From assembly GCA_964360585.1 (NCBI GenBank), contig CAYHXC010000002.1, forward strand, positions 5,641 through 69,640: a stretch of 64,000 bases of DNA. Reading direction: 5' to 3'. Position 1 is the first letter of the stretch, and every line of letters begins with the position of its first letter. A model generated the notes under the pieces. The model worked only from the letters and a program-made list of their open reading frames with translations, was not told where the DNA came from and searched no databases. This document shows positions 2,132 through 41,695 of this stretch, one piece after another. The position numbers and the translations under genes were made by a program. The DNA comes from an uncultured Candidatus Saccharibacteria bacterium (GTDB lineage: Bacteria; Patescibacteriota; Minisyncoccia; UBA6257; 2-01-FULL-56-20).

Positions 2132-2193
2132 TGGTCGGGGTACCCGGAATCGAACCGGGACCACACGCACCCTTGTCCCGTTAGAGAATGATC
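2132..2193 (-). pseudogene. tRNA 3' fragment (T-arm, acceptor 3' strand TACCCCG, discriminator A, encoded CCA) with no 5' half adjacent
   Basis: Minus strand reads ...GGTCCCGGTTCGATTCCGGGTACCCCGACCA. The T-stem is CCCGG/CCGGG with a TTCGATT loop. The matching CGGGGTA 5' strand lies on the other side of tRNA-Pro. Confidence 0.55.
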
Positions 2194-2195
2194 AG

Positions 2196-2266
2196 TCGGG
2201 CCGCCGGGAATTGAACCCGGTCTTTACGAACCCGAATCGCACGTACTACCGGTATACTACGGCCCG
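2196..2266 (-). tRNA. tRNA-Pro (anticodon CGG)
   Basis: Minus strand reads CGGGCCGTAGTATACCGGTAGTACGTGCGATTCGGGTTCGTAAAGACCGGGTTCAATTCCCGGCGGCCCGA. It has a 7-bp acceptor, anticodon loop TTCGGGT, T-stem CCGGG/CCCGG with TTCAATT loop, and no encoded CCA. Confidence 0.8.
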
Positions 2267-2316
2267 GTAATTCTCTAGCGGGATGAACGTGCGTACTACC
2301 ACTATACTATACCCCG
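2267..2316 (-). pseudogene. tRNA 5' fragment (acceptor 5' strand CGGGGTA plus D-arm) complementary to the 3' fragment at 2132..2193
   Basis: Minus strand reads CGGGGTATAGTATAGTGGTAGTACGCACGTTCATCC. The D-arm is near-identical to tRNA-Pro. CGGGGTA pairs perfectly with TACCCCG of the downstream fragment. Confidence 0.5.
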
Positions 2317-4694: not shown

Positions 4695-5393
4695 TCAGGA
4701 ATTGCGAGAAAAGACCCGACGGCCGCCGTACCACCTGATGCCGCCCAAGGCACCGGCGCGCACGCCCCAGCCGTCATCACGCCAATCGACGTACACGGAA
4801 CGCAGCACGCTATTCACGTCGCGAACGTAGAAGATGTTCGCCCACCCGTTGTTGAGCAGGGCACCTTCTCCACCGTTCGACTGGGCAACCATGAGCCGCC
4901 AGATTTCCGAGAGAGTAACTTCCGCGACAGCTTCGCCACCGAGGTCGGCGATGACCTCGCTGTCGTTGGCGCTCTGGGTCAGCGTGAGTGGAACGAGCAA
5001 GCCGTCCGGCACGTCTTCCTCCACTTTGCTGGCAAACCAGCTAATGAAGTTCAAGCCATGCTCGACCATCTTCACACCGGACGACTTCGAGAAGAAAGTA
5101 TCATCCGCCTTGAACGGGCAGGATTCGACGGGCTTCGGCGCGACGGGACGGAGCACCTTGCGGATACGGGGTTTCTTCGGGCGGGTGCGGATGGCATCCA
5201 CCATTACGACGATCGCGGCCTTGGTCTCCTTTATCACAAACTGGCGATCAACCCTACTGAGAGCATTGAAACCTGTTTGATGAGCGACCAGTTCGCCCAC
5301 CAGTCTTGACGTTTGTGGATCCTGTTCTGCGGTCATAGCTTTCCTCCTTTTTGACCGTTTCAACAAAGTCCTGCTGTTGGGCTTGGCCTTCAT
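4695..5393 (-). CDS. hypothetical protein (GC-rich, likely acquired)
   Basis: 232-aa ORF with GC near 60 percent, well above its neighbours. The probable start is MTAEQDP at about 5336. Confidence 0.5.
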   Translation of the reverse strand: MKAKPNSRTLLKRSKRRKAMTAEQDPQTSRLVGELVAHQTGFNALSRVDRQFVIKETKAAIVVMVDAIRTRPKKPRIRKVLRPVAPKPVESCPFKADDTFFSKSSGVKMVEHGLNFISWFASKVEEDVPDGLLVPLTLTQSANDSEVIADLGGEAVAEVTLSEIWRLMVAQSNGGEGALLNNGWANIFYVRDVNSVLRSVYVDWRDDGWGVRAGALGGIRWYGGRRVFSRNS

Positions 5394-5508: not shown

Positions 5509-5793
5509 TCAGCGGATTTGAGCGCCAAACTCAGTCTTTGATTTTTCCTCTAAAGCTTTGTGCATCACGTCTACTTCTTCGTTGGTAAGTGTTCGGTCGT
5601 TGTTTCTATAGATAACGCGATAGGTGTAGCTTTTCTTATCTTTTCCAAACTTTTCCTCATTTTCATATTGATCCAGGAGTTCTACCTGCTCCACTAAATC
5701 TCCAGCCACATCACGGACTAAATCAAAATAATTATTTGGCGCGAAAGTTTTTGGCGAGCAAGCAAGGTGAGAGGTCTTGCGAGGCGAAGCCAT
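5509..5793 (-). pseudogene. duplicated, diverged 3' end of pheS (FDX-ACB-like C-terminal ~85 aa)
   Basis: Translation ...PKTFAPNNYFDLVRDVAGDLVEQVELLDQYENEEKFGKDKKSYTYRVIYRNNDRTLTNEEVDVMHKALEEKSKTEFGAQIR is near-identical to the pheS C-terminus at 6871..7125. Nucleotide identity is about 78 percent and extends about 40 bp past the stop. Confidence 0.7.
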
Positions 5794-6870: not shown

Positions 6871-8031
6871 TTAGCGAATTTGGGCGCCAAACTCGGTTTT
6901 CGATTTTTCCTCAAGCGCCTTATGAAGCACGTCTACCTCTTCATTCGTCAATGTTCGATCACTACTGCGATAGATAACACGATAGGCATAACTCTTTTTA
7001 TCGGCGCCAAATTTCTCCGCGTTTTCATACTCATCAATCAACTCCACTTGCTCCACCAGATCACCCGCCACGTCGCGAACAAGATCAAAGTAATTATTCG
7101 GCGCAAATGTTTTTGGCACGACGAAAGAAATATCGCGAGTCACCGGCGGATACTTACTCACCTCCTGGAACTTCGTTCCCATCGTGAGCTGCTTCGTCAC
7201 CCGCTCGTCTTTGGACCAGAGAAGCCGAATATCCGGCAGTTCCATGCTACTAATAGCGAGCCGGTCCAAGCCGAATCCAAAGGCCCAACCGTTGTAGCCT
7301 TCGAGACCGAAGTTTTTCAAAACACTCTTTTTCGGCATTCCCCCGCCAAGCAACTCAATCCACTGGCCATTAATCTGAATCTCTACTTCGAGCGACGGAT
7401 CGGTATAAGGAAATGTATCCGGATTAAAACGATACACCGTCGACTCACCGAAAATTCCTTTTACAATCTGACTCAACACATTTTTAAGATCATCCAACAC
7501 CATCATTCCCTGGCTATCAGGCTGGAGATACAAACCACCGAACTGATGGAAGATGTTCATATGGCGACGATCGATCTCGTCCTTGCGATAGACCTTGCCG
7601 TAACAAACCACACCGAGCGGTTCCTGTTTGGCAATCTTTGCTTTGATCTCGGGAAGATTTAAATAGTAGTACCACATGACGGTGTCATGCGTACGCAAAA
7701 TATTTTTCGGATCGGCATAGTAGGTATCCGAAGCGCTTCGCGCCGGGTGGTCCGGAGCAAAGTCGAACAGATCAAAACTAACATCGACCGGCACAATCTC
7801 CGGAATAATGATGTTGTCAAAGTTCGCAAGCGCCGGAACCCGCTTTACCGATTCCACAATTTCGTGGAGCGGACTTGTCGTCGTGCGCGACAGATCGTCC
7901 ATCGCCAAGTACCGCTTAATCCGTCCGGCCTCGGCGTCAGTGCGCGGCTCGAGCGTCTTCCGAACCTGGTTTTCGTTGTCTCGATCAATCGTATATTCGG
8001 CTGACTGGGTAAGGGGCGAAGTGAAATCCAT
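6871..8031 (-). CDS. pheS: phenylalanine--tRNA ligase alpha subunit
   Basis: Carries the class II aaRS core (FPYTDPSLEVEI, GWAFGFGLDRLA) and ends ...SKTEFGAQIR. Confidence 0.95.
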   Translation of the reverse strand: MDFTSPLTQSAEYTIDRDNENQVRKTLEPRTDAEAGRIKRYLAMDDLSRTTTSPLHEIVESVKRVPALANFDNIIIPEIVPVDVSFDLFDFAPDHPARSASDTYYADPKNILRTHDTVMWYYYLNLPEIKAKIAKQEPLGVVCYGKVYRKDEIDRRHMNIFHQFGGLYLQPDSQGMMVLDDLKNVLSQIVKGIFGESTVYRFNPDTFPYTDPSLEVEIQINGQWIELLGGGMPKKSVLKNFGLEGYNGWAFGFGLDRLAISSMELPDIRLLWSKDERVTKQLTMGTKFQEVSKYPPVTRDISFVVPKTFAPNNYFDLVRDVAGDLVEQVELIDEYENAEKFGADKKSYAYRVIYRSSDRTLTNEEVDVLHKALEEKSKTEFGAQIR

Positions 8032-8145
8032 CCCGTTAGAAGCAGATCGCGATCAACGCATCCACACAATTATGTAATTTCAGGTTCGACATTTCATTAA
8101 AAAGCCCAGGGAAGCCAACTAAGCGATCGCGGCTTCTAACGGGAT
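8027..8145. promoter_or_regulatory. long-range inverted repeat (cccgttagaagc-gatcgcg ... cgatcgcggcttctaacggg) abutting the pheS start codon
   Basis: On the pheS mRNA, ...cttctaacgggATG lies directly before the start codon. It is complementary to a segment about 100 nt upstream. Confidence 0.5.
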
Positions 8146-8216
8146 CCATGGTTTTGATTGTAATCAAAGCAAGCCGCGAAAACAAACTTTTTACGTCGGG
8201 AGTAATTGACCGCCTC

Positions 8217-10259
8217 TTACTGGGTCTTCAGATTAAAACACGCCCGAAATATGTCTAAAGATTCCCCAGGTTTTTGGAGACAGCGGATTCCTTGCTTCGC
8301 ATAACCATTCTTTAAAGAAAACGAGAGGGCGTTGGTAAAAGATTTCTCCGCTCCACTTCGGTCTCCTATGCCAACGTGAGCCAGTCCTAAACGCACCCAC
8401 AGATCGGCCACATCTTTGCGATTCTCATCTTTATACGGATTAATCCAAGCGATTGATCGAAAGGCCTCCGGTGTGTGCTCGACTACGATTGGCTCGAGAA
8501 AATCAATGATGGCTTGGTAGTTCTTTTCTTCAAGATATAGATTGGAAAGCTCGCGGTAGGCAGAAAAAAGCATGAAATGGTCGTGGTCCGTGGCGGTCAT
8601 AAAATCAGTTTCAGCTGCCGCCAAATCTCCCTCCAACTTACGAGCCTGTCCGCGTAGATAGAAAAGATAGGGATCCTTCGGTCGTGTCCTCAAGGCTTCC
8701 GTAATTTCTTGGAACGCCCGCAATCGATACAGAACTCTCTCTTTTTCATCTGGCACGCCAGAGGCCAGCCGCAGAGAAAGAATAGCCAAGTCGCGGTGGT
8801 AGAGCGGATTCCCGGCATCGCTCCGCACAGCCGCGTCGTACTTTTCGTAGGCCGCACGCATATCACCTTCCGCCAGCGCCATTGAAGCCTCGGTAAAATG
8901 AGCTTCGGCAAGAACACTCATACATCCAAAAATGAGCGCGATGAAACTGAAAACGATCACGAAAAGATTGAAGATAAACGAAAACTGCGTTTTATCTTTT
9001 TTATTTTCCGAGGAAAGATAGAGACGTAACACAATTCCAGCAACAATAAAGAAAAGGAAAACATCGGCCGGAAATATCCAGTCGGCATTAACCATGTTTT
9101 GAAATACGAGAGCCAGAAAACTGCCGACGACCACGTAGAGCATCTGTTCTTCGTGAAGTGAATGATGATTTCTGTTTTTTGTTACCGAAAAAACCATCAC
9201 GAGCAAAGCCGCGAGGAAAAGAACCAGGACCACTCCTCCAAAAATCCCTAACTCCACGAACCCGCGAGCGAGAATATTGTGCGGATCGGTGGTATAGAAC
9301 GTCAGACGATCACGGTACTCGGTCATGGCATCGCCGAAACTGCCCCAACCGACACCGAAGAGTGGACTATACGAAAATATGCGCGCTGACTGATAGAGAT
9401 ACTCAAGGCGGGCAGTCAGTCCGTTTTCCGAAGCGCTTTCCTCTTTAAAAATATCGGTTGGTTGGATCACGCTCGTCCCCGAAGCAACGCTTTGGGGATG
9501 GTTCTTAAACTGAAACGCGGCCGTAGCGAGGAGAATGCTGACCGCCATCAGTAAGAAAAGCGTTGCGCTGCGCCGCCAGATTTTTGAGAACGGCCAGCGG
9601 AGCAAAAACATTGTGATAAGAAACGATCCCAGGAAAGCCAGCGCCGCGCCGCGGGCAAACGTAAAGAAGAGGGTACAAAAAAGAAAAATATTTATGGCAG
9701 CATACCACCACTTTCGGGACTGCTTCGATTCATAGAAAAGAAAACTAGTCGCAAAAAAAAGTGACGGGAGCATAAAGCCGGCAAAAGCATTTTGTTGATA
9801 GAAAACTGATCCTAAGCGAAAGAAAGGATGGGCGCCAAAAAATATGTACAAGCCATAGAGCGAGAAAAGTATCGTGCCCCACAGTAGCCAGGAGAAAAAA
9901 CGCTCAATCTTCGCGAACTCCTTGATAATCGAAGGTGTTTTTATAAATACAATAAAAGCGGAAAAGAATATAAGGAATAACCGCGCTGTGGTATACCGGT
10001 CAAACGAAAAAAATCCCGAGATAAAAATGGAAACAAGAAAGAGAATACACGAGAAAAATACTGTTTTATAAAGACGGCCTCCCAAGAAAACCTCTTCTCG
10101 AAAAAAAAGTACGAGAAGAGTCACAAGCGTAAAAATCATAGCTTGCGCCATCGGTTCCATTCCGCCCATAAAAACGGTCGGCAAAAGAATGAGGGCGACG
10201 ATGGCCACAAAACCAACGTCTTCTTTTGACCACGCCGCCCATAATTTTAAAAAATTCAT
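8217..10259 (-). CDS. polytopic membrane protein, O-antigen-ligase-like (Wzy_C-type) with C-terminal TPR repeats
   Basis: 680-aa ORF with about 12 TM helices followed by a TPR-like C-terminal region. It is paralogous in architecture to 58277..60502. Confidence 0.55.
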   Translation of the reverse strand: MNFLKLWAAWSKEDVGFVAIVALILLPTVFMGGMEPMAQAMIFTLVTLLVLFFREEVFLGGRLYKTVFFSCILFLVSIFISGFFSFDRYTTARLFLIFFSAFIVFIKTPSIIKEFAKIERFFSWLLWGTILFSLYGLYIFFGAHPFFRLGSVFYQQNAFAGFMLPSLFFATSFLFYESKQSRKWWYAAINIFLFCTLFFTFARGAALAFLGSFLITMFLLRWPFSKIWRRSATLFLLMAVSILLATAAFQFKNHPQSVASGTSVIQPTDIFKEESASENGLTARLEYLYQSARIFSYSPLFGVGWGSFGDAMTEYRDRLTFYTTDPHNILARGFVELGIFGGVVLVLFLAALLVMVFSVTKNRNHHSLHEEQMLYVVVGSFLALVFQNMVNADWIFPADVFLFFIVAGIVLRLYLSSENKKDKTQFSFIFNLFVIVFSFIALIFGCMSVLAEAHFTEASMALAEGDMRAAYEKYDAAVRSDAGNPLYHRDLAILSLRLASGVPDEKERVLYRLRAFQEITEALRTRPKDPYLFYLRGQARKLEGDLAAAETDFMTATDHDHFMLFSAYRELSNLYLEEKNYQAIIDFLEPIVVEHTPEAFRSIAWINPYKDENRKDVADLWVRLGLAHVGIGDRSGAEKSFTNALSFSLKNGYAKQGIRCLQKPGESLDIFRACFNLKTQ

Positions 10260-10505
10260 CCCGTTAGAGATAGATCCCGTTTAGAAACAGATCACGATCG
10301 AATAGTTTCTTTACGATATTCCCATTATTGACTATCGACTTTCGAGACCTAGTAGTTTGTGTCATAGAAAGAGTGATCGTGGTTTCTAACGGGATAGGAA
10401 ACGGCTAGGTTTCCGTTTAGACCAAGCACCTGTGTGATTATCATATTTCATTATTATCGGAAACGGTTCTCGAATAACTTTCTGGGAAATCTCTAACGGG
10501 ATTCA
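10257..10505. promoter_or_regulatory. 5' leader with nested cccgttaga / tctaacggg inverted repeats abutting the start codon of the 8217..10259 gene
   Basis: The motif tctctaacggg+ATG is on the coding strand. At least three complementary copies lie upstream (10257-10290, 10364-10400, 10485-10500). Confidence 0.45.
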
Positions 10506-22567: not shown

Positions 22568-22639
22568 GCCGGCGTAGCTCAGTGGTAGAGCGGCGCTTTC
22601 ATAAGGCGAAGGTCGCAAGTTCAATTCTTGCCGCCGGCA
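22568..22639 (+). tRNA. tRNA with CAU anticodon (elongator Met or lysidine-Ile2 type)
   Basis: Sequence GCCGGCGTAGCTCAGTGGTAGAGC...CTTTCATAAG...GCAAGTTCAATTCTTGCCGCCGGCA. It has a 7-bp acceptor with a G1-C72 pair and loop TTCATAA. Confidence 0.75.
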
Positions 22640-22651
22640 CAAAATTTTTTT

Positions 22652-22744: not shown

Positions 22745-22816
22745 CGCGGGGTGGTGGAAGGGTTACCATGCGAGCCCCATAAGCTCGTGGAGCCGGTTCG
22801 AGTCCGGCCCCCGCAA
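22745..22816 (+). tRNA. tRNA with CAU anticodon (candidate initiator: C1-A72 mismatch, 3-bp D stem)
   Basis: Sequence CGCGGGGTGGTGGAAGGGTTACCATGCGAGCCCCATAAGCTCGTGGAGCCGGTTCGAGTCCGGCCCCCGCAA. The anticodon stem is CGAGC/GCTCG with loop CCCATAA. Confidence 0.65.
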
Positions 22817-22827
22817 CATAGAAATGC

Positions 22828-26836: not shown

Positions 26837-27142
26837 ATGGCTTCTCCTATTAACCAAAAGGTACTGAAACACCTAGCGGGCCTGGCTCGGATCGAACTCT
26901 CCGAACGCGAGGAGAAAAAGCTCCTTGACGATCTCCGGTCTATCCTAGCCTATTTTGAAAAACTGGAAGAAGTCGACACGACCGACGTTCCGGCCATGAA
27001 CGGCGGCACCACGCTCCAAAATATCTTTCGCGAAGATAGCGAACGAATCGATACGCAAAAACAGCATGGCGTCGAGAGCTTTCCCGAAGAAGTCGGTGGT
27101 TTTTTGAAAGTTCCCTCTGTTTTCAATCATGATTCCCGTTAG
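26837..27142 (+). CDS. gatC: Asp-tRNA(Asn)/Glu-tRNA(Gln) amidotransferase subunit C
   Basis: Sequence VLKHLAGLARIELSEREEKKLLDDLRSILAYFEKLEEVDTTDV is a typical GatC. Confidence 0.85.
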   Translation: MASPINQKVLKHLAGLARIELSEREEKKLLDDLRSILAYFEKLEEVDTTDVPAMNGGTTLQNIFREDSERIDTQKQHGVESFPEEVGGFLKVPSVFNHDSR

Positions 27143-27250
27143 AGATGCCCAGCTATGATTTACACAACTATTTTAGAACAAACATATCCCTTCAGAAAAA
27201 GCCGGTCAATTTAAACAACGGAAATAATATTTCCTATCTCTAACGGGATG
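27136..27250. promoter_or_regulatory. inverted repeat tcccgttagagat ... atctctaacggga flanking 90 nt; the right arm abuts the gatA ATG
   Basis: 13-bp perfect arms. The start codon of gatA follows the right arm immediately (tctctaacgggATG). Confidence 0.5.
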
Positions 27251-28720
27251 ATCAATCCTAAACAACTCACACTCGAGACATTTCACGACGGCCTCGTAAA
27301 AAAAGAGTTCTCCGCTCTTGAGGTAACTCAGCACTTTCTTTCCAGGATTAAAGATGCCGATAAAAAAATCGGCGCTTATTTAAGCCTGAACGAAGAAACG
27401 GCCATTCGTGACGCTGAGGCAGTCGATCTTAAGATCGCCAAAGAGGAATCGATCTCACCGCTTGCCGGCGCCCCACTCGCCATCAAGGACAATATTTTAA
27501 TCGAAGGACTGCCCTCCACCTCAGCCTCAAAAATTTTAGAACATTACACCGCCGCCTACGATGCTACGGTCATTAAAAAATTAAAAAATCAACAAGCTGT
27601 CTTTTTGGGAAAAACAAACTTGGATGAGTTTGCCATGGGCGCTTCAACCGAAAACTCGGCGTTGCAGTTAGCGCGCAACCCGCACGATCCCGAGCGCGTG
27701 CCCGGCGGATCATCGGGCGGTTCAGCCGCGGCGGTCGCCGGCGATATGGCTTTGGCGGCACTGGGATCAGATACGGGCGGATCAATTCGTGAGCCATCAG
27801 CATTTTGTGGCGTTGTTGGGTTAAAACCAACATACGGCGCGGTATCGCGCTATGGTTTAACAGCGATGGCTTCGAGTTTGGATCAGATCGGTCCGATTAC
27901 TAAAACGGTTCATGATGCGGCACTGCTTTTTTCAGAAATCTACGGACACGATGGCTACGACGCCACGAGCGCACCAATAACCTATAAAACAAAAGAGTTG
28001 CTCCAACCGAAATATGAAACAGTCACAAAATTAAAAATCGGTTTGCCCAAAGAATACTTTACTGACGGCGGCGTTGATCCAATTGTGCAAACTGCTTTAG
28101 AAAAATCTATCTTCGCCCTGAAGTCGATGAAGATCGAGTTCAAAGAAATTTCCTTACCGCACAGTCAGTACGCACCAGCCTGTTACTACATCATCGTTCC
28201 CGCCGAAGTCAGTTCGAACACTGCCCGCTTCGATGGCATTCGTTACGCTCGGTTAAAACAGGGCTTGAAAGAATCGGAATCATTGAGCGATCTGTACCGC
28301 AAACAGCGCGGTCTCGGTTTTGGCCCAGAAGTAAAACGCCGCATCATCCTCGGCACCTTCGTACTCTCCTCCGGTTACTACGATGCGTACTACGCCAAAG
28401 CCCAAAAAGTGCGGACACTCATCAAACAGGATTTTGATACTGCTTTTCAGGATGTCGATGTCATCTTCACTCCAGTCTATCCTTCCTTGCCATTCAAGAT
28501 TGGCGAAAAAGTTGCCGATCCTCTCGCGATGTATTTAGCCGACATCTTTACGATTCCGGTAAACCTGGCTGGTCTACCCGCCATCTCCATTCCTATTGAA
28601 AAACCGGGTACGCAGTATGATCCGCAGAATCTCCCTACTGGCTTCCAATTGATCGGGAAACCCTTTCATGAAGGGGATATCCTCGGCATAGGCCAGTATT
28701 ATGAGAAGCTAAATTCATAA
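27248..28720 (+). CDS. gatA: Asp-tRNA(Asn)/Glu-tRNA(Gln) amidotransferase subunit A (amidase)
   Basis: Carries the amidase signature GGSSGGSAAAVA. Confidence 0.95.
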   Translation: MINPKQLTLETFHDGLVKKEFSALEVTQHFLSRIKDADKKIGAYLSLNEETAIRDAEAVDLKIAKEESISPLAGAPLAIKDNILIEGLPSTSASKILEHYTAAYDATVIKKLKNQQAVFLGKTNLDEFAMGASTENSALQLARNPHDPERVPGGSSGGSAAAVAGDMALAALGSDTGGSIREPSAFCGVVGLKPTYGAVSRYGLTAMASSLDQIGPITKTVHDAALLFSEIYGHDGYDATSAPITYKTKELLQPKYETVTKLKIGLPKEYFTDGGVDPIVQTALEKSIFALKSMKIEFKEISLPHSQYAPACYYIIVPAEVSSNTARFDGIRYARLKQGLKESESLSDLYRKQRGLGFGPEVKRRIILGTFVLSSGYYDAYYAKAQKVRTLIKQDFDTAFQDVDVIFTPVYPSLPFKIGEKVADPLAMYLADIFTIPVNLAGLPAISIPIEKPGTQYDPQNLPTGFQLIGKPFHEGDILGIGQYYEKLNS

Positions 28721-29498: not shown

Positions 29499-29557
29499 AA
29501 CGTTATTATACCACTTTTCGCTGAGGTATATGAACCGAATGGACCAGGGCTATGCGA

Positions 29558-37856: not shown

Positions 37857-37859
37857 GTT

Positions 37860-37895
37860 GCTATTATATCAAACGATCGTTTTATATAATAGCAA
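37860..37895. repeat. second copy of the ~36-bp palindrome, at the start codon/promoter side of the 37260..37856 gene
   Basis: Sequence gctattatatcaaacgatcgttttatataatagc. Confidence 0.7.
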
Positions 37896-41656: not shown

Positions 41657-41695
41657 GCGCTTTTATTATATCACACTGAAACTTCCCTCTCCCCG

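Follow-up and report, generated by a model that had tools for sequence, protein, structure and literature searches.

The inverted repeat at the beginning of pheS, in the 64-kb stretch of DNA analysed here (referred to below as the window), is very probably formed by the terminal inverted repeats of a non-coding, MITE-type mobile element of 114 bp, which inserted at the start codon and rebuilt it, leaving pheS to be expressed by a route that can be proposed from the sequence. The element, E1, was inserted directly after the A of the native pheS ATG, and its arrival duplicated the tetranucleotide TGGA. The copies at gatA and at a Wzy/TPR gene have the same origin, and all belong to a widespread family that shows a strong association with start codons and a preferred orientation. 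Given this origin by insertion, the hairpin that the repeat forms is a by-product of mobility and not a sensor specific to pheS, and the pheS/gatA riboregulator suggested by the window is dismissed as a false lead.

The element at the start of pheS

The pheS gene (6871-8031, minus strand) encodes a monomeric-type PheRS of 386 aa with a class II core and an FDX-ACB domain. Its ATG (8031-8029) stands directly 3' of ...CTAACGGG. The two arms, of 14 nt each (8030-8043 and 8132-8145), are 100% complementary and are separated by an 88-nt spacer. In the mRNA, the gene-proximal arm reads GCUUCUAACGGGAU, with position 8031 as the A of the pheS AUG, whilst the gene-distal arm reads AUCCCGUUAGAAGC. When the minus-strand RNA was folded, 12-14 bp paired as a terminal helix and 6-8 bp as a second one (CGCGAUC/GAUCGCG), with a 4-nt bulge (AUCU) in the gene-proximal strand between the two, bringing the pairing to about 21 bp. 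The proximal strand of the second helix, together with the bulge, occupies 8044-8054 (GAUCGCG at 8054-8048, the conserved AUCU at 8047-8044), and its distal strand, CGCGAUC, occupies 8125-8131. The hairpin anticipated in the preliminary description is thus confirmed by the fold, and the repeat that it had reported is real, comprises a pair of about 20 bp and adjoins the ATG; it is built as a helix of 12-14 bp, a bulge and a second helix rather than as one uninterrupted perfect 20-mer. A consensus structure derived from 18 E1-type copies contains both helices, with compensatory changes in 7 of 20 pairs and a conserved bulge, A(U/C)CU. A profile search matched the pheS copy in the gene-sense orientation (E=1.6e-10).

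E1 itself spans 8031-8144 (gene-sense strand minus), its 114 bp including a terminal T..A pair, and is bounded by two copies of its target. The proximal copy (8027-8030; TCCA on the plus strand, TGGA in gene sense) supplies the UG of the present pheS AUG, and the distal copy (8145-8148) forms, with A8149, the native ATG, which now lies upstream. The last base of the element is a purine, and therefore the gene-proximal junction again reads A+TG and the coding sequence is left untouched. Relatives whose PheS or GatA is 82-86% identical retain the synteny and have no element at the pheS, wzy and gatC/gatA junctions. At pheS, where the empty site (ATGGAA or ATGGAT) was seen in three relatives (L124, L126 and L128), these read ...TACAATcagccttATGGAA, as against ...TACAATcaaaaccATGGAT, the element and then ATGGAT in the window. 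At wzy (for example in L126), the stop codon TAA of the Bac_transf gene is followed at once by the ATG of wzy, and at the third junction gatC overlaps gatA by 14 nt (ATGACAAATCCTAA), which matches the prediction made from the window. The predicted 24-mer of the empty pheS site had no exact match in JGI metagenomes.

Insertion displaced the native ATG and a promoter-like site to 118 bp upstream of pheS. This putative native promoter (8157-8185, minus strand) consists of TTGTTT (8185-8180), a 17-nt spacer and TACAAT (8162-8157), 7 nt from the native A8149; it has a leaderless geometry and is conserved in relatives without the element, and it scores below the threshold of the consensus scan. The insertion also created an upstream ORF (8036-8149, minus strand), which starts at the native ATG and runs for 37 codons across the whole element (MDPVRSRDRLVGFPGLFNEMSNLKLHNCVDALIAICF and stop), ending in a UAA that is followed by CGGG and then by the pheS AUG, such that stop and start are 4 nt apart. 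A further promoter-like match faces pheS from inside E1 (8069-8097, minus strand; ATGAAA, 17 nt, CATAAT), but family-wide, hexamers of this kind are found as often on one strand as on the other, which makes the match weak evidence.

Other copies in the window

The motif CTAACGGG occurs eight times in the window, where 1.23 occurrences are expected and eight were reached in 0 of 100 shuffles, and its copies always form outward-facing inverted pairs about 100 nt apart. Five units of the family are present in the 64 kb. The junction ...CTAACGGG-ATG does recur, as the preliminary description had noted, at the gene at 8217-10259 (ATG 10259-10257) and at gatA (ATG 27248-27250), and direct repeats flank all three insertions (ATCCAT/ATCCAT at pheS, ATTCAT/ATTCAT at the Wzy/TPR gene and ATGATT/ATGATC at gatA). 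The element at the start of the Wzy/TPR gene, E2 (10259-10501, minus strand), is a composite: its outer element is flanked by the duplication TTCA (10255-10258 and 10502-10505), and an inner E1-type element (10275-10394, minus strand; flanks TAGA and TAGG) is nested in its proximal arm region. E3 (27134-27248, plus strand) lies between gatC and gatA with the duplication TGAT (27130-27133 and 27249-27252), and the gatA ATG begins with A27248. The gene next to gatA on its upstream side, given differently in the earlier account, is gatC (26837-27142), which is on the same strand and has its stop TAG (27140-27142) inside the left arm of E3; a bidirectional promoter between divergent genes at gatA is thereby ruled out.

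The remaining element, E4 (2176-2283, minus strand), has family arms with one mismatch each that enclose an intact tRNA-Pro(CGG) gene (2195-2266), and it is flanked on one side by the 5' half of a Pro-like tRNA (about 2284-2320) and on the other by the 3' half (about 2140-2175). Trial excisions from the outer tRNA were made, and ARAGORN accepted too many joins for these to be informative. A HIP1-type cyanobacterial repeat was also considered for the window; GCGATCGC is found three times and is not enriched.

A family of elements in uncultivated phyla

One scan of GTDB species genomes returned more than 120 loci, in Patescibacteria, Omnitrophota, Planctomycetota and Deltaproteobacteria, several of them with two to three copies within 8 kb. 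The 142 copies are 78-144 bp long and share the layout N, 4 bp, Y, CCCGTTAGA...TCTAACGGG, R and the same 4 bp, that is, terminal repeats YCCCGTTAGA...TCTAACGGGR between target duplications of 4 bp. The terminal Y and R change in concert, being T.A in 81 copies and C.G in 53; the 13-bp terminal stem retains approximately 90% Watson-Crick pairing at its variable positions, and about 63% of the copies have a duplication of the form TNNA. Tandem copies with a common target repeat were found at two loci (L035 and L031). The cores are not conserved, are AT-rich and contain TATAAT-like boxes; the only coding capacity is in short upstream ORFs, whose peptides are unrelated to one another beyond MxPVR. 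The genes that the elements precede are unrelated and are spread over many phyla.

Four of the attributes by which MITEs are recognised are present: a length below 300 bp without transposase coding, terminal inverted repeats, target duplications together with three empty sites, and multiple copies per genome. It is unusual for a MITE that at least nine terminal bases are identical across distant phyla whilst the cores are almost unrelated. A further attribute of MITEs is an autonomous parent element with the same ends that encodes the transposase. The approximately 1.5 Mb of DNA flanking the retrieved loci yielded neither a transposase nor a complete parent element bearing these ends; the search, which used long arm pairs, ORFs adjoining solo arms and recurrent ORF clusters, yielded only housekeeping genes and a few divergent serine recombinases. 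Plasmid and phage collections contained no similar DNA, and three pattern matches in viral contigs have no duplications and look like chance. Rfam gave no match, either at gathering thresholds or at E<=10, and no prior description of the family was found in the literature on start-codon MITEs, IS1380/piggyBac and Patescibacteria repeats.

Association with start codons

A link between the repeats and start codons had been proposed from the window, and it proved far stronger than the window alone showed: 82 of the 142 copies adjoin the start codon of an ORF that is 50 codons or longer, and in 66 of these 82 a second start codon is kept on the distal side. Copies that end in C.G change the ATG to GTG. 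Occupied ATGRA-type targets, as counted from the copy tables, number about 59 at gene starts and about 5 elsewhere, whereas the same loci offer 193 free ATGRA sites at starts and 804 in intergenic DNA. The preliminary description had opposed its regulatory reading to one in which the repeats are MITE termini at random positions; this holds only by half, because the termini are those of a mobile element and yet 82 of 142 copies abut start codons. Targeting of transcription starts was rejected, as leaderless-type -10 boxes show no excess upstream of occupied sites (22%, against 14-20% for control starts), and E2 and E3 are located at operon-internal starts. The motif was also rejected as a -10 box for leaderless starts: TCTAAC has neither the key A2 nor the key T6, and real genes of the window use TATAAT.

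Orientation relative to the gene is biased by 47:4, and the gene-sense orientation also gives the higher profile scores. In 24 of the 66 copies with two starts, an upstream ORF from the native ATG crosses the whole element and stops 4 nt before the new start or overlaps it (-7 or +1), where shuffled cores gave an expectation of 5.1 +/- 2.1 and a maximum of 12 in 1000 shuffles. The native-ATG frame is free of stops in 25 of the 66, the other frames in 6-13. Such a bias of orientation, and a frame kept free of stops, speak for selection on function rather than for pure parasitism. The upstream ORF stops early in 41 of the 66, and therefore coupling to it cannot be the general route by which the downstream gene is expressed. 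Element length was set aside as evidence for coupling, since the distributions modulo 3 for start-associated copies (31, 21 and 14 for remainders 1, 2 and 0) and for the others (24, 18 and 18, counted by hand) are not clearly different.

Units that carry a tRNA gene

In some units a complete tRNA gene lies between family arms, and the unit as a whole splits a tRNA of the same kind; E4 is the one such unit in the window. These units measure about 100-116 bp (the arms and one tRNA), have constant flanks (TTCA-Y...R-CAAG or its reverse complement), replace a CA or TG dinucleotide in the anticodon loop of their own tRNA species and nest recursively. They have no matching 4-bp duplications; at least this branch may move by another mechanism. 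Large serine recombinase genes, 26-28% identical to one another, lie 65-500 bp from three tRNA-Val units. A tRNA intron, whether a bacterial group I intron or an archaeal bulge-helix-bulge intron, was rejected for E4: contiguous removal leaves the 7-nt anticodon loop unrestored, and the outer halves are often decayed, from which it follows that the unit is not a spliced intron.

Alternative explanations

The preliminary description saw in the repeat a dedicated cis-regulatory hairpin (a thermometer, an attenuator, or an operator for a protein or uncharged tRNA) that would control pheS and gatA through a logic shared by genes of tRNA charging. An AUG at the foot of a stable helix would suit such control, and pheS is under leader regulation in other bacteria. 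The proposal is nevertheless very improbable and the shared logic unsupported, because the element, which close relatives lack at the orthologous loci, precedes unrelated genes in other phyla and has no Rfam match, and because the third gene of the window, at 8217-10259, encodes an O-antigen-ligase-like protein and not a tRNA-charging enzyme. Furthermore, the upstream ORF of E1 has no run of Phe codons, the cores are unconserved, and target duplications and nesting denote insertion. Still more remote is assignment to a known class of structured repeat (integron attC, REP/REPIN, CRISPR repeat or tRNA intron). The arms do hold GTTAGAR, similar to the core of attC (GTTRRRY), and YTCTAAC, similar to its inverse core (RYYYAAC), in an imperfect, bulged hairpin of about 100 nt; the order of the cores is, however, reversed on both strands (GTTAGAR...YTCTAAC here, RYYYAAC 5' and GTTRRRY 3' in attC), and the copies stand singly at gene starts with neither cassette arrays nor an integrase. 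Target duplications are likewise foreign to attC and to REP, and REP/REPIN sequences (20-40-nt GC-rich palindromes mobilised by RAYT) have a GTAG or CGTC head that is missing here. The copies form no regularly spaced array of the CRISPR kind, and size and unconserved core exclude a group I intron.

Three further readings accept a mobile element and differ in how it acts or moves. The 13-bp stem could be an RNA-processing signal, at whose foot an RNase III-type cut would release a message beginning with R-UG for leaderless translation; the tolerance of insertion exactly at the start codon would then be explained. The invariance of the stem across phyla, its last pair being the first base of the start codon, its occurrence around complete tRNA genes (that is, processed RNAs) and a host genome in which leaderless-type starts abound and Shine-Dalgarno sites are scarce all fit this reading, and it would account for the 41 copies with an early stop in the upstream ORF. 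The upstream frame that is open in a third of the copies goes unexplained, however, and a helix of 12-14 bp is short for classical RNase III, such that we consider processing unlikely, if the least so of the three. A little less likely is an outward-facing promoter in the element, by which only insertions in the right orientation would survive; this would explain the 47:4 bias and agrees with the sigma-70-like match in E1 and the TATAAT-like boxes of the cores, and the Correia elements of Neisseria carry outward promoters. Yet -10-like hexamers are as frequent in antisense (100 versus 90 matches), a strand symmetry that led to promoters being rejected as the cause of the bias; no box holds a conserved position, and at pheS the native promoter is still upstream. 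Similarly doubtful is movement through site-specific recombination or through homing, brought about for instance by a serine recombinase with a 2-bp core or by an endonuclease with repair from a filled copy. The constant flanks of the tRNA-type units around a replaced CA or TG, their recursive nesting and the nearby serine recombinase genes argue for it, but the 4-bp duplications of the start-codon copies are genuine, comprise many different sequences and lie at unrelated genes, an outcome that neither a recombinase nor homing by homology would give, and recombinases so divergent from one another may be unrelated neighbours.

Proposed mechanism and significance

Under the preferred explanation, a transposed element that rebuilds the start codon, the agent of movement would be a transposase, of the cut-and-paste or the copy kind, with cuts staggered by 4 bp at TNNA-like sites. 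Expression of pheS could have been kept if transcripts still begin at the native leaderless-type promoter: ribosomes would then read the upstream ORF of 37 codons, melting the hairpin as they pass through it, stop at the UAA 4 nt before the pheS AUG and re-initiate there by termination-reinitiation coupling. An effect of the hairpin and the upstream ORF on translation is possible as a consequence of the insertion. More tentatively, it is conceivable that a cross-phylum family of hairpins of about 110 bp has evolved to insert only where its own damage is undone, in two forms. In the start-codon form the terminal purine would rebuild ATG or GTG, and a stop in the arm, or cleavage of the stem RNA, would hand the ribosome to the new start; in the tRNA-cargo form the unit would enter the anticodon loop of the tRNA species that it carries, replace the gene that it destroys and so become indispensable, repeatedly, giving rise to 'Russian-doll' tRNA genes.

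An abundant mobile element of Patescibacteria and other uncultivated phyla, for which no earlier description was found in the literature, thus emerges with start codons and tRNA anticodon loops as insertion sites, mended on insertion. It bears on how tiny, gene-dense genomes put up with mobile DNA, and it affects gene calling in metagenome-assembled genomes, in which starts that are duplicated or changed from ATG to GTG, C-termini that are altered (as in GatC) and tRNAs that are split or nested may be misread. The copies also provide a natural test case, in unculturable organisms, for leaderless translation, upstream-ORF coupling or RNA processing, and an enzyme with specificity for these ends and for A|TGNN as its target would be of interest as a tool.

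Comparison with known systems

Among known transposons, the IS1380 family and the piggyBac superfamily, which use a DDE/DDD transposase, are similar in their ends, CC(C) followed by TAGA (piggyBac CCCTAGAAAGATA; CCCGTTAGAAAGAT in some copies here), and in a 4-bp duplication of TNNA form (TTAA for piggyBac). Both the CC-type ends and the TNNA duplication fit, whereas the retrieved loci contain no transposase of any family adjoining the ends, the targets extend beyond TTAA, and there is an extra covarying terminal pair. The tRNA form recalls the integrative elements that target tRNA genes and supply a replacement copy, in that it splits the anticodon loop and provides an intact tRNA of the same kind, and it shares a long helix at the anticodon loop with the split tRNAs of Nanoarchaeum; unlike the integrative elements and archaeal introns, the unit is only about 100-116 bp long, has no integrase and nests repeatedly within itself. 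Termination-reinitiation coupling, known from UAAnnnnAUG and AUGA overlaps, is paralleled by an arm that sets UAA 4 nt before the regenerated AUG and, in another frame, lets UGA overlap AUGA; here the putative coupling signal was carried in by a mobile element rather than evolved in place.

Rickettsia palindromic elements (RPE) are similarly small, palindromic and mobile, and lie in genes, including RNA genes, without destroying them, being read through by ribosomes. They differ in being inserted in frame within coding regions and becoming part of the protein, whereas the element described here is kept outside by the stop in its arm and the regenerated start. The Correia (CREE/NEMIS), ERIC/IRU, RUP and Nezha MITEs are alike in being non-coding, multi-copy sequences of about 100-150 bp with target duplications, whose terminal repeats fold into a long hairpin in the co-transcript and can alter expression of the downstream gene. 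Membership of the Correia family was rejected on the ends (YCCCGTTAGA as against the Neisseria-type 26-bp repeat), the duplication and the phyla concerned. The present family is unrelated to these MITEs in sequence, duplicates a 4-bp TNNA-like target rather than TA, combines hypervariable cores with ends that are invariant across phyla, resides in Patescibacteria, Omnitrophota and Planctomycetota and is set apart by its position exactly at the start codon, which it regenerates, and by its strong bias of orientation.

Structure at the pheS start codon

The ATG of pheS directly follows ...CTAACGGG and begins a long ORF (6871-8031, - strand) whose product is a PheRS joining a class II core to a C-terminal FDX-ACB domain. 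This fusion is of the single-chain type, like the mitochondrial enzyme; a second FDX-ACB domain is encoded two genes downstream by a distinct 94-aa ORF (5509-5793, -), and no classical pheT was seen near pheS. Around the start codon, two 14-mers on the + strand, 8030-8043 (ATCCCGTTAGAAGC) and 8132-8145 (GCTTCTAACGGGAT), are perfect complements 88 nt apart, and the 5' region is predicted to fold as RNA into a terminal helix of 14 bp that an interruption separates from a further helix of 6-7 bp (MFE -42.1 kcal/mol, z = -1.7 against shuffles). The octamer CTAACGGG occurs eight times in the window against 1.2 expected, a number reached by no shuffle, and its copies form, without exception, outward-facing inverted pairs spaced by ~100 nt. 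These are found at pheS (8032/8136), at the start of the 8217-10259 gene (10260/10386, with a further copy at 10493), at gatA (27135/27240) and, slightly degenerate, in a tRNA-Pro unit (2177/2275). The inverted repeat at pheS reported in the preliminary description is thus real, with fully complementary 14-nt arms that fold as RNA, and the same CTAACGGG junction was correctly recognized at gatA and the 8217-10259 gene.

Evidence for insertion

Each of the three pairs at gene starts is flanked by direct repeats: ATCCAT...ATCCAT at pheS, ATTCAT...ATTCAT around 10259-10501 and ATGATT...ATGATC at gatA. The 10259-10501 unit (243 bp) is composite, comprising one element with a second, pheS-type element in its gene-proximal arm region. 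At gatA, the TAG stop of gatC, which lies upstream on the same strand, now falls within the left arm. The window matches a Hainich groundwater contig at 99.99% identity. The closest matches to its PheS and GatA come from Paceibacterota/Minisyncoccia-type Patescibacteria, and relatives with PheS or GatA 82-86% identical were used for an empty-site comparison. The gene orders Bac_transf - Wzy/TPR - PheS and gatC - gatA are kept in these relatives and all three insertions are absent. Upstream of pheS the relatives read ...tttgatTACAATcagccttATGGAA, where the window reads ...tttgatTACAATcaaaaccATGGAT[element]ATGGATttc; the wzy ATG immediately follows the Bac_transf stop TAA; and gatC overlaps gatA by 14 nt (ATGACAAATCCTAA), exactly as in the window once the element and one repeat are removed. 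The relatives' junctions are empty sites, and the flanking repeats are therefore target duplications; the entry point is after the A of the native ATG. The inverted repeat is very probably a mobile element, of the MITE kind, and not a riboregulator of pheS and gatA. The translational-control hairpin originally proposed for these two genes had put the wrong label on a real structure.

Distribution and conservation of the family

Scanning one genome per species with the pattern CCCGTTAGA, 85-115 nt, TCTAACGGG returned at least 120 matching loci; hosts among the matches listed include Saccharibacteria-, Parcubacteria-, Kaiser-, Nomura-, Wolfe-, Uhr-, Levyi- and Berkelbacteria, Omnitrophota, Planctomycetota, Deltaproteobacteria and others. 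The 142 copies among these matches (78-144 bp) share the layout N-[4 bp]-Y-CCCGTTAGA...TCTAACGGG-R-[same 4 bp]. The terminal Y/R pair covaries (T.A in 81, C.G in 53), as do three more stem positions with ~90% pairing, and the duplicated tetramer is TNNA in ~63% of the listed copies (TGAA/TTCA, TGGA/TCCA, TAAA/TTTA and others). In the pheS-type subfamily, the consensus structure has helices of 12 bp and 8 bp, separated on the gene-proximal strand by a conserved bulge of four nucleotides, A(U/C)CU. Compensatory changes are present at 7 of 20 pairs, and the AT-rich cores of ~70 nt cannot be aligned. No match to the element was found among Rfam families, no similar DNA in plasmid and phage collections, and no description of the family in the literature searched.

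The second helix of this subfamily carries the GATC-containing palindromes GATCGCGATC and GCGATCGC (window 8045-8054 and 8123-8132; also L061, L077, L079 and L096), possibly methylation or restriction-type sites. Short strand-specific motifs recur family-wide in oriented cores, namely CGGGA in the distal third, AGTCGA in mid-core and ACGG immediately ahead of the proximal hairpin. These motifs are partial repeats of the terminal AACGGGA and possibly serve as subterminal binding sites. Tandem copies with one common 6-nt junction (ATTCAT/ATGAAT) and longer same-ended variants of ~280 bp were also seen (L035 7674-7895; L031 5899-6278; L012 3878-4158; L099 6921-7197). Outside Patescibacteria, copies in Omnitrophota and Planctomycetota (e.g. 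L013, L030, L057, L075, L083, L120) mostly have C.G ends and flanks GTAAAC(el)GTAAAx, and are intergenic, with a few nt to some tens of nt between them and a gene start, and not on the start codon.

tRNA-carrying units

The fourth window pair (2176-2283) encloses an intact tRNA-Pro(CGG) gene and is itself bordered by the two halves, 5' and 3', of a Pro-like tRNA (2140-2320, -); a GTDB locus has a tRNA-Val in the same geometry. A metagenome scan requiring a T-loop-like motif between the arms gave at least 120 loci, and among the matches listed 57 tRNAs (Val, Ala, Pro, Thr, Gly, Arg, Met and Leu) lie within arm pairs, in units of 99-116 bp. The flanks are two halves of a same-kind tRNA broken in the anticodon loop, and further complete tRNAs enclosed by split ones of matching isotype occur in L093 (432-538), L136-L255 and L244 (1440-1740). 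Some loci show recursive nesting of the units; in L244 a tRNA-Val is nested three levels deep and the outer copies are decaying. The junctions that occur most often among the listed matches are TTCA-C(unit)G-CAAG, with 18 cases, and, with 6, its reverse complement CTTG-C(unit)G-TGAA. When the unit and these tetramers are replaced by the dinucleotide that the tetramers have in common (CA or TG), the outer tRNA is restored, with the inner's anticodon, in 17 of 54 cases. On the simplest reading, the unit would destroy a resident tRNA gene, supply its replacement and be able to target its own cargo. Its flanks (TTCA-Y...R-CAAG or the reverse complement) are without matching 4-bp duplications, so the mechanism may differ. 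Large serine recombinase genes (Resolvase and Recombinase domains; L139 993-2069, L171 2287-3822, L174 2719-4296) lie 65-500 bp from three tRNA-Val-type units; the three proteins are mutually only 26-28% identical, and a connection to the elements is a lead only. Elsewhere in the window, two tRNA-Met(CAT) genes (22568-22640 and 22745-22817, +) lie 105 nt apart.

Association with start codons

In 82 of the 142 listed copies, an ORF of at least 50 codons starts at the base right after ...CGGG, and in a few others the start is shifted by 2-3 nt (target-site duplication CATG/TATG). The native start codon persists on the distal flank in 66 of these 82, the new ATG being re-created by the element's terminal purine and the duplicated TG; C.G-ended copies create GTG instead (ATGAAC(el)GTGAAA). 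By our own count of listed copies, occupied ATGRA-type targets number ~59 at gene starts and ~5 elsewhere, against free ATGRA sites in the same loci at 193 predicted starts, 804 intergenic positions and 3410 positions within genes (crude gene calling); on these counts, pentamer preference combined with loss of intragenic insertions was rejected as the cause of the start bias. Targeting of transcription starts was likewise rejected: leaderless-type -10 boxes precede occupied sites no more often than they precede control starts, and two of three window copies are at operon-internal starts.

Orientation relative to the gene is non-random. The end with YCT-R-YY-TCTAACGGG, often with a local hairpin ahead of it (for instance ACGGAAAT...ATTTCC), is gene-adjacent in 47 copies and gene-distant in 4, and every window copy scores much higher in gene-sense orientation against a profile of oriented copies. 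Some start-codon copies (L050 ~1040-1065, L110 ~4790-4813, L058, L029, L116, L105) have hybrid flanks CTTG-Y(el)R-TGAA, the tRNA type reversed, without duplication and often with a TATAAT box 9-14 nt upstream of CTTG.

Expression of the downstream gene

Shine-Dalgarno sites are scarce in the window genome, and many ATGs have a TATAAT box 6-8 nt ahead of them (e.g. 29499-29520, 37857-37880, 41657-41680), a pattern suggesting that leaderless mRNAs are widespread in this Patescibacterium. Native pheS has a promoter-like geometry conserved in relatives (TTGTTT, 17 nt, TACAAT, 7 nt, ATG); after insertion, this site precedes the old ATG, from which an ORF of 37 codons now runs through the element to its end at UAA-CGGG-AUG. 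A transcript from this site would be translated from the old ATG across the element to the UAA, with re-initiation at the new AUG. The native-ATG ORF spans the whole element in 24 of 66 copies, ending at UAA (-7) or an AUGA-overlapping UGA (+1), whilst shuffled cores gave 5.1 +/- 2.1 such ORFs (maximum 12 in 1000 shuffles); the native-ATG frame is stop-free in 25 of 66 copies, the five other frames in 6-13. The encoded peptides show no relation beyond MxPVR. We take these counts as evidence that translation through the element is under selection, which would amount to termination-reinitiation coupling.

Coupling cannot be the sole route, because 41 of the 66 upstream ORFs end prematurely. Alternatively, the RNA may be cut at the base of the conserved stem, which would leave a leaderless R-UG mRNA. 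A promoter internal to the element could possibly drive the gene, and there is one promoter match within the 114-bp pheS element (8031-8144, -), but -10-like boxes are symmetric between the strands.

Compared with an ordinary repeat, the element is lifted well above this class by its precise start-codon insertion with a regenerated start, its orientation bias and its open upstream frames; its ends, invariant across phyla, and its tRNA-carrying, self-nesting relatives are also unusual.
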